Positions 1,982 through 14,905 of a DNA stretch of 64,000 bases are shown one piece after another (the stretch's first letter is position 1; every line of letters begins with the position of its first letter). The position numbers and the translations under genes are program-made. The notes beneath the pieces were generated by a model. The model made no database searches, was not told the DNA's origin, and was given only the letters and a program-made list of their open reading frames with translations. Source of the stretch: a virus; IMG/VR virus record IMGVR_UViG_3300037504_001427, positions 23,640 through 87,639 of that record. One strand, given 5' to 3'.

Positions 1982-2449
1982 TCATGCAGTGCTCCGAGGG
2001 TCCACCACCATGATCTTGTTGATCCGTTCCGCCAGATCGGGGTGAATGATGGCCACCACGATCTCCTGGTCCTCGATGGCAACCTTGGTCGAAACCATAG
2101 GGGTCTGGGCCGTCTGCCTAGCCGTCTCATAGGCGTCCAGGAGCGGCCCCAGGTCAGTCATCATACCGTGTGTCCTCGGAGCGGCATCATCACGCGCGCA
2201 CTTCCGCAGAGACGCTAGGTCGAAACGGGATACGGAGACGCCTTCCACGAATCCGCACCCGGCGACCCAGACGGTGCAGCACTGGTCACTCGCCGGCTGG
2301 TCCATAATGCGGACCTCGCGTCCGATCAGCGGGGCCCAGAAGGAATTGGCTCGATTCTGCTCGGTATCGGCCACGGGCGCACGCAAGATTTCTTTCCCGT
2401 GTGCGAAGCCGCAGCCGTAGTCGTTGCCACCGCCTACTGGATATCTCAT
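1982..2449 (-). CDS. hypothetical protein beginning with an MRYPVG array head
   Basis: MRYPVGGGNDYGCGF followed by non-repetitive sequence; coupled to the array. Confidence 0.5.
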   Translation of the reverse strand: MRYPVGGGNDYGCGFAHGKEILRAPVADTEQNRANSFWAPLIGREVRIMDQPASDQCCTVWVAGCGFVEGVSVSRFDLASLRKCARDDAAPRTHGMMTDLGPLLDAYETARQTAQTPMVSTKVAIEDQEIVVAIIHPDLAERINKIMVVDPRSTA

Positions 2450-5200
2450 CGCCCCTCCACTGTGCCGCGGCCGTTGCCATAGCCAGCGCCGGTGCCGTAG
2501 CCGTAGCCGAAGCCGTAGCCGTCGCCGTAGCCGAAGCCGTAGCCGAAGCCGTAGCCGAAGCCGGCGCCGAAGCCGGCGCCGAAGCCGGCGCCGTCGCCGT
2601 GGCCGAAGCCGTGGCCGTAGCCGTAGCCTACTGGATATCTCATCGCCCCTCCACTGTGCCGAACCCGAAGCCGAAGCCGTAGCCGTAGCCGGTGCCGTAG
2701 CCGTCGCCGAAGCCGTCGCCGAAACCGTCGCCGTAGTCGAAGCCGTCGCCGAAGCCGTGGCCTAAGCCGCGGCCGAAGCCGTGGCCGAAGCCGACGCCGT
2801 CGCCGTTGCCGTAGCCGTTGCCGTAGCCGTGGCCGAAGCCGGCGCCGTCGCCGTTGTCGTAACCGTCGCCGAAGCCGTAACCGTCGCCGAAGCCGTCACC
2901 TACTGGATAGTTCATCGCCTGCTTCCTACTGTGCCGTAGCCGTAGCCGCGGCCGTTGCCGCAGCCGTTGCCGTAGCCCTCGCCGTCCCCGTAGCCGTAGC
3001 CGCAGCCGTCACCGTAGCCGTAGCCGAAACCGTCGCCGAAGCCGAGGCCGTTGCCGTTGCCGTTGCCGTCGCCAAAACCGTTGCCGAAACCGTCGCCGAA
3101 ACCGTCGCCGAAGCCACCGTAACCGTCGCTGAAGCCGTGGCCGTAGCCGTAGCCGTAGCCGGTGCCGTTGCCTACTGGATATCTCATCGCCCCTCCACTG
3201 TGCCGTTGCCGTCGCCGAAGCCGTAGCCGTAGCCGGTGCCGCAGCCGGTGCCGAAGCCGTCGCCGAAACCGTCGCCGTAGTCGAAGCCGTCGCCGAAGCC
3301 GTGGCCGTCACCGTAGCCGTAGCCGAAGCCGAGGCCGTTGCCGCTGCCGTTGCCGCTGCCAAAACCGTTGCCGAAACCGTCGCCGAAACCGTCGCCGAAG
3401 CCACCGTAACCGTCGCCGAAGCCGTAACCGTCGTCGTAACCGTCACCTACTGGATATCTCATCGCCCCTCCACTGTGCCGTTGCCGTCGCCGAAGCCGTC
3501 GCCGAAGCTGTAGCCGTAGCCGTCGCCGTTGCCGAAGCCGTTACCGAAGTCGTCGCCGAAGCCGTGGCTGAAGCCGTGGCCGAAGCCGGCGCCGTAGCCG
3601 TTGCCGTAACCGTCGCCGAAGCCGTAACCGTCGCCGAAGCCGTAACCGTCGCCGTAACCGTCACCTACTGGATATCTCATCGCCCCTCCACTGTGCCGCG
3701 CCCGTTGCCGTAGCCTTCGCCGTCCCCGTAGCCGTAGCCTTCGCCGTCCCCGTAGCCGTAGCCGCAGCCGGTGCCGTTGCCGTTGCCGTTGCCGTTGCCG
3801 TAGCCATTGCCGTAACCGGAGCCGGAGCCGTCGCCGAAGCCGTCGCCGAAGCCGTCGCCGAAGCCGTAGCCGTAGCCTACTGGATATCTCATCGCCCCTC
3901 CCCTTTGCCGTTGCCGTCGCCATAGCCATAGCCAGCGCCGTAGCCGTATCCGTAGCCGAAGCCGTAGCCGAAGCCGCCGCCGTAGCCGTCGCCGCCGACG
4001 AAACGATAGCCGTTGCCGTAGCCGTTACCGTAACCGTAGCCGGTGCCGCGGCCGTTGCCGTAGCCGAAGTTGTAACCGTCGCCGTTACCGGTGCCGTAGC
4101 CGCTGTCGTCGCCTACTGGATATTTCATCACCCCTCCACTGTGCCGTTGCCGCTGTCGTCGCCTACTGGATATTTCATCACCCCTCCACTGTGCCGTTGC
4201 CGTTGCCGTAGCCAGCGTCGGTGCCGTAGCCGTCGCCGAAGCCGTAGCCGTAGCCGTTGCCGTAACCGGCGCCGTCGCCGTCGCCGTCGCCGTCGCCGTA
4301 GCCGAAGCCGCAGCCGAAGCCGAAGCCGTAGCCGTAGCCGTAGCCGTAGCCGCAGCCGTAACCGGCGCCGTCGCCGTAGCCGTTGCCGTCGCCGAAGCCG
4401 TCGCCGAAGCTGTAGCCGTAGCCGTCGCCGTTGCCGAAGCCGTTACCGAAGCCGTCGCCGAAGCCGTGGCCGAAGCCGTCGCCGAACCCGCCACCTACTG
4501 GATATCTCATCGCCTGCTTACTGTGCCGTAGCCGCAGCCGAAGCCGGCGCCGTCGCCGTTGCCGTAACCGTCGCCGAAGCCGTCGCCGAAGCCGAAGCCG
4601 AAGCCGCCGTAGCCGAAGCCGGCGCCGTCGCCGTTGCCGTAACCGTCGCCGTGGCCGTGGCCGTGGACGAAGCCGTAGCCGTAGCCTACTGGATATTTCA
4701 TCGCCCCTCCACTGTGCCGCGGCCGTTGCCATAGCCAGCGCCGGTGCCGTAGCCGTAGCCGAAGCCGAAGCCGTCGCCGAAGCCGAAGCCGTAGCCGAAG
4801 CCGTAGCCGAAGCCGTAGCCGAAGCCGGAACCGTCGCCGAAACCGTCGCCGAAGCCGGAGCCTTCGCCGTCGCCGAAGCCGTGGCCGAAGCCGTCGCCGA
4901 AGCCGTAGCCGAAGCCGCCACCTACTGGATATCTCATCGCCTGCTTACTGTGCCGTAGCCGCAGCCGTCGCCGCAGCCGTCGCCGTTGCCGTCGCCGCAG
5001 CCGGTGCCGCAGTCGTTGCCGTTGCCGTAGCCGTGGCCGTAGCCGAAGCCGTAGCCGAAGCCGTAACTGTCGCCACAGGCGTAGCCGTAGCCGTGGCCGT
5101 CGCCGAGGCCGCAGACATTGCCGAAGCCGTAGCCGTAGCCGAAGCCGCAGCCGTAGCCGTTGCCTCCACCTACTGGATATTTCATCGCCCGCGCTCCACT
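2434..5200 (-). repeat. MxYPVG Gly-rich mini-ORF array, block A
   Basis: Coupled ORFs 2446-2643, 2640-2915, 2912-3187, 3184-3462, 3459-3680, 3677-3892, 3889-4128, 4128-4178, 4178-4510, 4507-4701, 4698-4937, 4934-5185; each is bounded by the junction (+ strand cctactggatatctcatcgcccctccactgtgcc). Confidence 0.95.
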
Positions 5201-5201
5201 G

Positions 5202-12762: not shown

Positions 12763-12769
12763 GGATACC

Positions 12770-14905
12770 TCATCGCCTGCCTGCCGCTGTGCCGAGCCCG
12801 TAGCCGTAGCCGTCGCCGGTGCCGTAGCCGGTGCCGTAGCCGGTGCCGTAGTCGGAGCCGGTGCCGGTGCTGTCGCCGTCGCCGTCGCCGTAGCCGTCGC
12901 CGAAGCCGTCGCCGAAGCCGTAGTCGGAGCCGTGGCCGTAGCCGTAGCCGTCGCCGAAGCCACCGCCGAAGCCGAAGCCGTAGCCGAAGCCATAGCCGAA
13001 GCCGAAGCCGGCACCTACTGGGTATCTCATCGCCTGCCCGCCACTGTGCCGAGCCCGAAGCCGAAGCCGTATCCGTTGCCGAAGCCGTCGCCGTAGCCGT
13101 CGCCGCTGCTGTTGCCGTTGCCGTTGCCGTTGCCACCACCGAAGCCGTCGCCGTTGCCGAAGCCGTCGCCGAAGCCGTCGCCACTGCTGTTACCGCGACT
13201 GTCGCCGTTGCCGTTGCCGTTGCCGCAGCCGTAGCCGAAGCCGAAGCCGTCACCTACTGGATATCTCATCGCATCATCTCCAGGCCTCCACTGTGCCGTG
13301 GCCGTGGCCGTAGCCGTTGCCGAAGCCGTCGCCGTCGCCGTAGCCGTCGCCGTTGCCGTTGCCGTAGCCGTCGCCGTCGCCGTAGCTGTCGCCGAAGCCG
13401 TATCCGTTGCCGAAGCCGTCGCCGTTGCCGTTGCCGTAGCCGTCGCCGTCGCCGTAGCCGTCGCCGTAGCTGTAGCCGTAGCTGTCGCCGTGGCCGTAAC
13501 CGTAGCTGTCGCCGCTGCCGTCACCTACTGGATAGTTCATTGCCCACCTCCCATCCGTAGCCGTCACCTACTGGGTATCTCATCGCCTGCTCGCCGCTGT
13601 ACCGAGCCCGAAGCCGAAGCCGTATCCGTTGCCGAAGCCGTCGCCGTAGCTGTCGCCGTAGCCGTTGCCGTTGCCGCGACTGTCGCCGTTGCCGTTATCG
13701 TTGCCGCAGCCGTAGCCGAAGCCGTAGCCGCCACCTACTGGATATCTCATCACCCACCTCCCACTGTGCCGTGGCCGTTGCCGTTGCCGTCGATGTCGCC
13801 GTAGCCGTTGCCGTAGCCGGCGCCGAAGCCGTAGCCGTAGCCGAAGCCGGCGCCGTCGCCGGAACCGTCGCCGAAACCGTCGCCGAAGCCGGAGCCTTCG
13901 CCGTCGCCGTCGCCGTCGCCGTAGCCGTAGCCGTCGCCGTAGCCGTCGCTGTCACCGAAGCCGTCGCCGAAGCCGAAGCCGCAGCCGTCACCTACTGGAT
14001 ATCTCATCGCATCATCTCCAGGCCTCCACTGTGCCGTGGCCGTAGCCGTTGCCGTTGCCGAAGCCGTAGCCGAAGCCGTAGCCGAAGCCGTGGCCGTAGT
14101 CGGAGCCGTAGCCGGTGCCGTAGCCGTAGCCGTAGTCGTCGCCGAAGCCGCCAAATCCGTCGCCGAAGCCGCCGCCGCCGTAACTGTCGCCGAAGTCGGA
14201 GCCGTCGCCGAAGCCGTAGCCGTCGCCGAAGCCACCGCCGAAGCCGAAGCCGTAGCCGAAGCCGTAGCCGAAACCGAAGCCGTCACCTACTGGATAGTTC
14301 ATCGCCCACCTCCCACTGTGCCGTGACCGTTGCCGTTGCCGTCGATGTCGTCGTAGCCGTGGCCGAAGCCGAAGCCGTAACCGTAGCACGCCGGCAGGCG
14401 CATCGCAAAAACGGTGAATGATGCGTCGCCGAAGTCGTAGCCGAAGCCGCAGCCGTAGCCGAAGCCGTCGCCAAAGCTGTAGCCGTAGCCGTAGCCGTCG
14501 CCGAAGCCGAAGCCGCAGCCGTCACCTACTGGATATCTCACCACCTGCCCTCCACCGTGTCGTAGCCGCAGCCGTCGCCGTCGCCGAAGCCGCAGCCGTA
14601 ACTGTCGCCGTAGCCGAAGCCGTGGCCGTTGCCGTCGCCGTTGCCACCACCTACTGGATATCTCATCGCCCACTTCCAACTGTGCCGTGGCCGCGGCCGT
14701 TGCTGTTGCCGCAGCCGTAGCCATCGCCGTCGCCGTCGCCGTAGCCGTAGCCGTCGCCGTAGCCGTCGCTGTCACCGAAGCCGTAGCCGTAGCCGTAGCC
14801 GTCGCCGTAGCCATCGCCGTCACCGAAGCCGTCGCCGTAGCCGTCGCCGTCACCGAAGCCGTAGCCGAAGCCGCCACCTACTGGATATCTCATCGCCCAC
14901 CTTTC
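12770..14905 (-). repeat. MxYPVG array, block D
   Basis: Units 12770-13030, 13027-13269, 13274-13540, degenerate ~13537-13583, 13580-13750, 13750-14007, 14012-14302, 14299-14541, 14538-14666, 14663-14893. Confidence 0.95.

Follow-up and report, generated by a model that had tools for sequence, protein, structure and literature searches.

A phage micro-gene family with a probable amplification into chained arrays in two predicted translationally coupled operons that carry DNA-modification genes

Introduction

Why would a bacteriophage carry, on one strand, some forty short glycine-rich open reading frames (ORFs), most of which stop where the next one starts? The question is raised by a 64,000-nucleotide (nt) stretch of viral DNA, hereafter the window, which comprises bases 23640-87639 of IMG/VR virus record IMGVR_UViG_3300037504_001427, an 87,639-bp sequence with direct terminal repeats whose only public holder is one run from a tidal-flat metagenome. 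The ORFs scanned include genes for a DNA polymerase of family A, a primase-helicase, helicases of the SNF2 and UvrD types and methyltransferases; no relatives of the primase were found in IMG/VR, and a 12-kb piece gave no match to GenBank phages by megablast. An earlier, sequence-only reading had noted about 45 minus-strand copies of a junction at which one ORF ends and the next begins, separated by variable tracts in which glycine codons alternate with others (Gly-X). Here we present evidence that these units belong to a family of phage micro-proteins with a conserved partner gene, and that the arrays probably arose by massive tandem and segmental amplification of one such micro-gene in two operons, predicted to be translationally coupled, which also hold DNA-modification genes.

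Results

Anatomy of the arrays

The head sequence ATGAGATATCCAGTAGG occurs in the window in 42 copies at up to 3 mismatches, or 43 at up to 4, all on the minus strand and 0 on the plus strand, close to the number first claimed, and the full 34-mer junction occurs in 9 copies at up to 3 mismatches as against 0 expected in shuffles. Gly-rich ORFs (more than 30% Gly, 26-110 amino acids (aa)) are opened by 37 heads and total 8.6 kb, or 9.8% of the genome; the 16-aa unit 4178..4128 has 25% Gly only, about 4 further heads belong to short decayed units, and two open ordinary genes (the PAPS-reductase-like gene 8343..7252 and the 155-aa ORF 2449..1982). We take the amplified set to comprise 37 intact and about 6 decayed units. 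Twenty-five units end in a 4-nt ATGA or GTGA overlap onto the next head; for 3 others the overlap is the 1-nt TGATG, and a further three stop 4 nt ahead of the next ATG, the remaining units being run-terminal or decayed. At 31 junctions the stop lies at -1 to +7 nt relative to the next start, a same-strand spacing of the kind expected in a translationally coupled operon. Position +4, the A common to the stop and to codon 2, is invariant, and codon 2 is therefore always AGA, AAA, AAC or AGG. The genome's only tRNAs, two tRNA-Met and one tRNA-Arg(UCU), jointly decode ATG-AGA, the first two codons in 33 of the 43 heads.

The peptide M[RKN]YPVG is present in 40 of 43 heads, while tails vary in length (GTVEGR-stop, also as GTVEGR(R), GTVAGRR-stop, GTVSRR-stop, GTVGGGR-stop, GTVEAWR-stop, GTVGSGR), with the stop always at or just before the next start. 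Between them, the bodies consist of GGC-NNC hexamers with C at the third codon position in 92% of codons, as compared to 38% in neighbouring genes; they are 47% Gly, the residues Y, D, F and N far outnumber all others at X, and all units of at least 40 aa keep frame. The predicted unpaired probability of the mRNA peaks at the A/U-rich AUGAGAUA (0.6-0.88, the array averaging 0.43), and no sigma-70 promoters or terminators above the level of shuffles were found in the array blocks. Both modules also occur apart, the tail without a head before QueC and, as a non-coding copy, before head 5185, and the head without a tract in the PAPS-reductase-like gene and in the leader peptide of a Macro-domain gene.

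These observations bear out much of the sequence-only reading. Its interpretation of each junction as stop, Shine-Dalgarno (SD) sequence and start plus N-terminus agrees with the ATGA/TGATG overlaps and an SD-like purine run, the sequence signature of translational coupling; the variants it listed at 50972 (GTG AGG TAT CCG GTC) and 13030 (TAC) are both present, and its view of the units as a paralogous family of low-complexity peptides in the Gly-X frame is supported. Selection on MxYPVG, which it also proposed, finds support in 8 synonymous as compared to 4 non-synonymous changes in codons 3-6 of the heads within the genome, and in the retention of P-V-G across phages with different codons.

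Other types of repeat were considered and rejected. A clustered regularly interspaced short palindromic repeat (CRISPR) array, in which repeats of fixed length alternate with unique spacers of similar size, does not fit the intervals of 15-300 bp of hexamer repeats in open frame seen here, where the repeats themselves carry start and stop codons. An array of precursors of ribosomally synthesized and post-translationally modified peptides was likewise dismissed, as no YcaO, radical S-adenosylmethionine, LanM or similar enzymes were seen among the window ORFs scanned (which do not include every small ORF) or around the Gly-X linker gene of one further locus, L181. Mutagenesis of the NNC codons by a diversity-generating retroelement is ruled out because the 87.6-kb genome holds no reverse transcriptase (PF00078, no match).

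A widespread micro-protein family

A scan of IMG/VR with a (GGCNAC)-type 33-mer returned at least 118 loci, and micro-ORFs of at most 130 aa in which a Gly-X tract stands between a short head and a short tail were found in 51 of those listed. A recurrent subfamily shares the motifs of the window, with heads MF[RYQ]P[VI]G, MHPVG or MKYPKG and tails of G-T-V plus a basic cluster, such as GTVSTRNRRSL, GTVESGR.. and GTVGSGRGRR, the window tails being shorter. The family was defined in this analysis by an N-terminus M-x(0-4)-[RYFM]-P-[VI]-G, 20-100 residues of alternating Gly-X (X being mainly Y/N/D/S/F, with GGC-NAC codons) and a C-terminal G-T-[VCI] with a basic cluster, which condenses to M-x-[RY]-P-[VI]-G, (Gly-X)n, G-T-V...R-R, and the window units possess the head, tract and tail so described. 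Among 93 micro-ORFs adjoining the partner gene presented below, P is found in 67 and V/I in 70, and GT[VCI] in 58 of 83 tails. Judged by these motifs, the window unit is no orphan but a member of a widespread, uncharacterised phage micro-protein family, single-copy nearly everywhere else, and the GTVEGR tail is a family-wide peptide motif (G-T-V...R-R) as well as a ribosome-binding site (RBS).

Exact and degenerate searches of IMG/VR for the junction itself gave 0 matches and 12 chance matches, GTDB genomes 5 chance matches only, and metagenomes single chance matches only among the matches listed, so that the search for other arrays through the junction, as first suggested, remained at chance level, whereas the (GGCNAC)-type scan did recover related small arrays. 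Four units chained by 4-nt overlaps, with another head (MKEKHNMNNNG) and followed by a DUF6948 gene, stand in L220; two units joined by ATGA (4-nt overlap) in L240/L395; and further small arrays in L381/L383 (3 units) and L369. The array architecture, thought to be without description, indeed has none that we found in the literature (nor has DUF6948), but it is not unique in kind, since 2-4 chained units per contig occur in other viruses; the window array is about ten times larger. Protein searches were of little help: phmmer with one unit returned generic GYGDG proteins only, Pfam one chance low-complexity match, and PHROGs nothing for 4 window units and the L241 member, with one weak match, to a family of unknown function, for the L279 member, while ESM Atlas offered 30 unnamed viral clusters as a lead only. 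The length of the tract is hypervariable between near-identical genomes, as in L336-L340, where partners are 94-100% identical and the micro-gene ORFs span 76-110 aa.

A conserved partner gene with a predicted Sm-like fold

In nearly all subfamily loci a gene of ~100 aa lies directly upstream of the micro-gene, and in the 5 loci whose DNA was read the stop of this partner overlaps the ATG of the micro-gene as TGATG. The micro-gene starts less than 150 nt past the partner stop for 33 of 36 partners in Gly-X loci; in an unbiased linkage test on the best 80 of 394 IMG/VR contigs encoding a partner, picked independently of Gly-X, the same was observed in 67 of 80, and 3 more contigs end less than 100 nt from the partner stop. 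Copy number in partner loci is 1, occasionally 2-3. The micro-gene is thus normally a single gene coupled to this partner, and the window has a partner too, present in single copy in the genome (Table 1).

At 50% identity the partner family falls into 281 clusters, and at 90% into at least 3,825, which are named 'hypothetical' or unnamed and have a precomputed Pfam domain in 0 of 120 listed. Members had no match in Pfam or PHROG, and tblastn of the partner protein against GenBank phages found none. Against DUF6948 (gathering threshold 27 bits), close partners gave no match and 5 of 10 distant ones scored 13-22 bits; the gene that follows the L220 array reaches 76 bits with DUF6948, and hhalign of alignment A3 against it was weak. 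An AlphaFold2 (AF2) model of the partner (predicted local distance difference test (pLDDT) 73) had a best Foldseek E of 0.013 with template modelling (TM) scores of 0.5-0.65, and in a structure comparison nearly all of the top 35 entries were Sm/LSm proteins, at Z 5.3-7.2, under the caution line of Z 8, with Hfq lower in the list. The model is without an N-terminal helix, whereas the Sm fold has an N-terminal helix and a strongly bent five-stranded sheet. On this modelling the partner is tentatively predicted to have an Sm/LSm-like fold.

Downstream of the partner the window retains a 31-aa ORF which may be the collapsed original micro-gene copy. A previously suspected 'inverted junction copy' at 53070-53086 is no antisense element, as the minus strand there reads the start of this family-type relic (MFHRP...). 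A (CTGA)4-5 run at 53086-53100(-), between the partner stop and the relic ORF, places stops in all three frames.

Gene content of the two blocks

The array units lie in two leftward blocks, the features of which are collected in Table 1.

Table 1. Features of the array blocks and related loci (window positions; "stop" marks a stop codon after the peptide)
Feature	Position	Strand	Remarks
155-aa ordinary ORF, last cistron of the chain	1982..2449	-	begins with a head and few Gly-X codons (MRYPVGGGNDYGCGF...)
Run of 12 chained Gly-X units	2446..5185	-	each ends in an ATGA/TGATG overlap with the next head
Heads of the 12-unit run	5185, 4937, 4701, 4510, 4178, 4128, 3892, 3680, 3462, 3187, 2915, 2643	-	tails mostly GTVEGR-stop/GTVSRR-stop
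88-aa ORF	5202..5468	-	stop 17 nt before head 5185; spacer retains tail-like RBS CAGTGGAGCGCGGGCG, no tail encoded
tRNA-Met (CAT)	5486..5558	-	inside array operon; 1:72 mismatch, initiator-like
Cargo ORF	5591..7171	-	starts at 7171 and runs in frame, without a stop, through unit 6616..6365 (268-aa fusion)
Units 6368, 6060, 5830	5591..7171 region	-	next after the 268-aa fusion; tail type GTVAGRR-stop
Decayed 22-aa unit	7203..7271	-	
PAPS-reductase-like gene	7252..8343	-	Pfam PF01507, E 4.5e-15; N-terminus is a head, MRYPGDGRG...
7-Deazaguanine genes	8340..11796	-	QueC 11796..11116, FolE2 11119..10337, DUF6884-TGT fusion 10355..8340
Run of about 13 units, two decayed	11797..14893	-	three copies of a two-unit segment, MNYPVG..GTVEAWR-stop then MRYPVG..
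Macro-domain gene	12762..12292	-	PF01661, E 3e-21; end ..AGGRR-stop overlaps next head (GTGA)
4-codon leader MRYP-stop	12773..12759	-	overlaps GTG of the Macro gene
Four chained units (51393, 51175, 50972, 50757), C5-methylase, unit 49492..49172	49172..51393	-	most divergent heads, GTG starts
31-aa relic micro-ORF MFHRPCVHGSGARRR...	52990..53085	-	family-type head, almost no Gly-X tract, basic end; TGA overlaps C5-methylase ATG at 52993
Conserved partner gene, single copy in genome, 87 aa	53101..53364	-	44-58% identity to partners of 9 other phages; local hidden Markov model E 2.7e-36
Two chained units	54517..55013	-	upstream of C5-methylase 54487..53471
208-aa ORF 57137..56511	part of 55774..57137	-	sub-threshold helix-turn-helix (HTH) N-domain; in-frame ~95-aa Gly-X tail ending GTVVGRR-stop
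Units 56514, 56317, 56024, then decayed ATA-start unit (55839)	55774..57137	-	downstream of the 208-aa ORF
tRNA-Met (CAT) and tRNA-Arg (TCT)	60086..60159 and 60164..60237	-	TCT reads AGA

Several of the interleaved genes bear pieces of the junction, which raises the possibility that junctions and tracts act as an expression and recombination platform scaffolding the in-frame capture of DNA-modification or anti-defence genes and lending them start, stop and coupling, the peptides being by-products or linkers. The PAPS-reductase-like protein, besides its head-like N-terminus, has a 16-aa C-terminal extension (..DGVGYHTVEGR..) past the IPYE end common to most of 23 aligned homologues; the Macro gene is framed by its leader and by a tail-like end with a GTGA overlap; the QueC ATG directly follows a tail variant (..STVEGR, TAG ATG); two ORFs continue in frame into Gly-X tracts; and both blocks share an exact repeat of 128 bp. 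In addition, a 36-bp in-frame insert at 14388-14423 (unit 14541..14299), visible in the unit alignment as an odd segment ..SFTVFAMRLPAC..., is identical to genome positions 13075-13110 on the same strand, outside the window, and so was copied from elsewhere in the genome. We nevertheless consider this explanation unlikely: hundreds of other phages carry the unit as a conserved single gene beside a fixed partner, and this linkage together with its protein-level conservation argues that it has a function of its own; moreover, the 12-unit run is without cargo, and exchange between phages is not demonstrable, as the same junction was found in no other genome.

The DUF6884-TGT fusion in the 7-deazaguanine set is an unusual protein of 671 aa; neither QueD nor QueE turned up in the ORFs scanned. 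Pfam and PHROG searches with the 155-aa ORF at the end of the first run were without match. A (CA)n microsatellite lies at ~5560-5575(-), between a decayed head (ATGAGCATTATCAG) and tRNA-Met, and a 70-bp exact direct repeat at 1024 and 41439 is unrelated to the arrays.

Codon bias of the tracts

The GGC-NAC bias is a property of the family. Among 67 members selected by way of their partner, 88% of Gly codons are GGC (42% in the partner gene next to them) and 91% of NAY codons are NAC (57% in the partner gene), a difference that is seen in every genome-GC bin. A queuosine link, whereby NAC would be read by tRNAs with queuosine at position 34 (Q34) in arrays that flank QueC, FolE2 and TGT, was rejected as the cause of the bias, because this is family-wide and independent of genome GC; the neighbourhood of L181, the sole one scanned, holds no deazaguanine genes. 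The related phages L179 (3054-3816), L181 (11497-12193) and L184 (11497-12121) encode just downstream of a PAPS-reductase-like gene a different Gly-X protein, outside the micro-gene family, of 200-250 aa with an N-terminal GSGYGDG linker of variable length. The bias could reflect strong translational selection on a message that is highly expressed and highly repetitive, homogenisation of the repeats or, ranked low, a role of the nucleic acid.

Under the last of these, the (GGCNAC)n DNA or RNA itself would act, as a sink or target for modification enzymes or a host nuclease or as a structured or protein-binding RNA, with the ORFs incidental. The family-wide bias would suit such a role, as would synonymous sites that are more uniform than X-codon positions and the three C5-methylases and TGT-like enzyme flanked by arrays; GGC is also, reportedly, one preQ0 target motif in phage CAjan. 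We regard it as very unlikely, given that head and tail peptides are conserved despite synonymous change, that start, SD and stop are conserved, and that real domains are fused in frame; slippage shuffling of a few hexamer 'words' with selection for C-ending codons accounts for the synonymous uniformity, and L181, the one locus scanned, with a larger Gly-X linker protein in place of the family micro-gene, is without modification genes.

Amplification history and assembly

Tail types cluster by position along the arrays, 14302-11797 contains the two-unit segment in triplicate, the 16-aa unit is formed by a tandem duplicate of 50 bp, and the 128-bp repeat (56528 = 12787) links the two blocks, other exact repeats being at most 75 bp. 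Synonymous divergence is low, and alike in heads (8 changes at three wobble sites in 43 copies) and bodies (8% non-C), while the first two positions of X codons vary freely. This pattern fits a recent amplification and reshuffling of a few hexamer 'words' by slippage or unequal exchange, for which point-mutational diversification would not be required.

The arrays might instead have been inflated by an assembler looping through strain variants of one or a few units. There is only the one holder run, and its k=31 Logan contigs break inside the arrays, with many alternative joints. Many IMG/VR contigs (L336, L346, L347, L352, L358, L362-L364 and others) end 40-500 nt past the partner, in or at a Gly-X tract; such tracts are systematic breakpoints of short-read assemblies, and copy numbers elsewhere are probably under-counted, so that the uniqueness of the array is to be taken cautiously. 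There is little chance, however, that an artefact accounts for the arrays: the units are mutually distinct, and because exact repeats are short apart from the one of 128 bp, 150-nt reads could have resolved unit order; independent contigs of the run bridge every array edge, and their summed depth over 2900-4770 (65-94) is close to that of the unique flanks (~70); cargo genes with junction remnants are interleaved with units; and arrays of 2-4 units occur in other contigs.

The coding frame

A conserved start, purine-rich SD and stop accompany the Gly-X frame only, and real domains (PAPS_reduct and the HTH-like ORF with its Gly-X tail) as well as the 268-aa fusion share the frame of the head ATG. 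X codons depart from expectation (observed/expected: Phe 195/113, Ile 1/34, Val 3/49; Pro 0 observed; p = 1.6e-51), which by itself lends weak support to amino-acid-level selection favouring Phe and avoiding Ile, Val and Pro. The decisive point is the conservation of head and tail peptides across phages with different codons, which identifies Gly-X, on comparative sequence grounds, as the coding frame. That another frame or strand codes (minus-strand Ala-Thr or Arg-Leu, or plus-strand Val-Ala-Glu with the most variable hexamer position as wobble) is extremely improbable even though six frames are open, hexamer position 4 is wobble in the Ala-Thr and Val-Ala frames and avoidance of GTC/ATC could equal plus-strand Asp avoidance, since these frames lack a conserved start, SD and stop and change composition at every junction (TA to RL to GX), every cargo gene lies on the minus strand in the frame of the heads, and motifs conserved across phages are found in the Gly-X frame only.

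Discussion

The arrays are best explained, with a fair measure of probability, as one phage micro-gene multiplied in tandem and by segments. The ancestral state would be that seen in hundreds of uncultivated phages, a single micro-gene right behind the Sm/LSm-like partner with a TGATG overlap, and unequal recombination at the junction and within the GGC-NNC tracts may then have multiplied it, leaving copies in two leftward operons alongside the QueC, FolE2, TGT-like, PAPS-reductase-like and Macro-domain genes and three C5-methylase genes. The last codons of a unit would provide the purine-rich SD, its stop and the following start overlap, and the first codons, rich in A/U, would keep that start accessible; because of these features ribosomes should move along the successive cistrons by termination-reinitiation combined with SD-driven initiation.

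Some observations weigh against this interpretation. The partner in the window is not adjacent to the arrays, the nearest intact units lying 1.7 kb downstream, after the relic ORF and a methylase; the SD offered by some tails (GGCGGGCAGGCG) is poor and its spacing short, and the decayed units would break the relay in places; no RNA runs holding the sequence are listed among public runs; and the internal order of units rests on one short-read assembly from one metagenome. As to the frame, all six are open in the tracts, so that ORF length proves nothing; units that resemble each other are separated in alignment mostly by gaps of a multiple of 6, as expected from hexamer slippage alone, which renders frame-keeping uninformative for coding; and the N4-N5 codon association can be read in the plus-strand Val/Ala/Glu frame as well.

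Comparison with related loci and known systems places the proposed amplification in context. Single-copy micro-genes beside the partner (L254, L279, L243, L241) share the head and tail motifs, the GGC-NAC bias and the stop/start overlap with the upstream gene, but hold 1 (rarely 2-3) copies right after the partner, whereas the window has at least 37, in two operons away from it and with tails shortened to end on the next start. The small arrays (L220, L240/L395, L381/L383) likewise consist of paralogous Gly-X micro-ORFs with 4-nt overlaps, beside a partner-family or DUF6948 gene, yet have ten-fold fewer units, no interleaved cargo and, in L220, another head. Translational coupling by termination-reinitiation at overlapping stop and start codons is established for the trp operon and has been surveyed in bacterial and archaeal operons; the window has the same ATGA/TGATG overlaps with the SD in the upstream ORF, although here a single paralogous family supplies as many as 13 cistrons in a row and coupling is predicted from sequence. 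In the gene 'accordions' of poxviruses, exemplified by amplification of K3L under host pressure, a small viral gene is also amplified in tandem, raising dosage and variant number; the window differs in belonging to a phage, in its diverged and decayed copies and in an amplification that looks stable rather than transient. The start-associated and extended start-associated sequences (SAS/ESAS) of Cluster K mycobacteriophages and the promoter-early stem-loop (PeSL) cassettes of T4-type phages are repeated start-associated or intergenic cassettes, and like the present motif they are short, stand in one orientation at many gene starts and have proposed roles in expression and modular shuffling; unlike them, the window motif is coding on both sides and appears to derive from gene duplication, not from a mobile intergenic element.

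The products would be acidic, Tyr/Phe-rich, intrinsically disordered Gly-X peptides, with a net charge down to -13, bodies of 15% Tyr and 9% Phe, no hydrophobic core, no K or R in the interior of the units and, for a peptide modelled in ESM Atlas, a pLDDT of 0.37. The most likely function would be a bulk, dosage-dependent role with the Sm-like partner. The fixed linkage to that partner, together with Gly-X tails fused to several enzymes, suggests bulk scaffolding or co-assembly, though we hold this narrower role to be rather improbable. Proteins in which an LSm domain is joined to a low-complexity tail, such as Lsm4, Edc3 and Scd6/Tral, and also glycine-rich RNA-binding proteins, offer a parallel, in that the phage pair combines a putative Sm-like barrel with a G/Y/N/D-rich disordered segment and the partner model is best matched by LSm4, LSm1-7 and the LSm domain of Edc3; here, however, the two are separate genes, and the likeness is one of fold between a model and its matches (Z 5-7, 8-22% identity). 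By this analogy, partner and micro-protein might form a widespread two-gene phage system, a split version of the condensate design 'LSm domain plus prion-like low-complexity tail', in which the relay of ~40 cistrons would supply scaffold, tag DNA-modification proteins for co-assembly through in-frame head and tail remnants and Gly-X tails, and dock captured genes, a speculative scheme to which we would give only a slender chance.

The findings suggest that a large phage gene pair has escaped annotation, its low-complexity half defeating similarity searches, gene callers and short-read assembly alike. The virus described here represents the extreme, one micro-gene taking up about 10% of the genome, and may be viewed as a natural amplification experiment that points to strong selection for peptide dosage or diversity. 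The array would provide an unusually long test bed for ribosome termination-reinitiation, while the pair as found in simpler phages offers a tractable route to the role of aromatic Gly-X peptides during infection.

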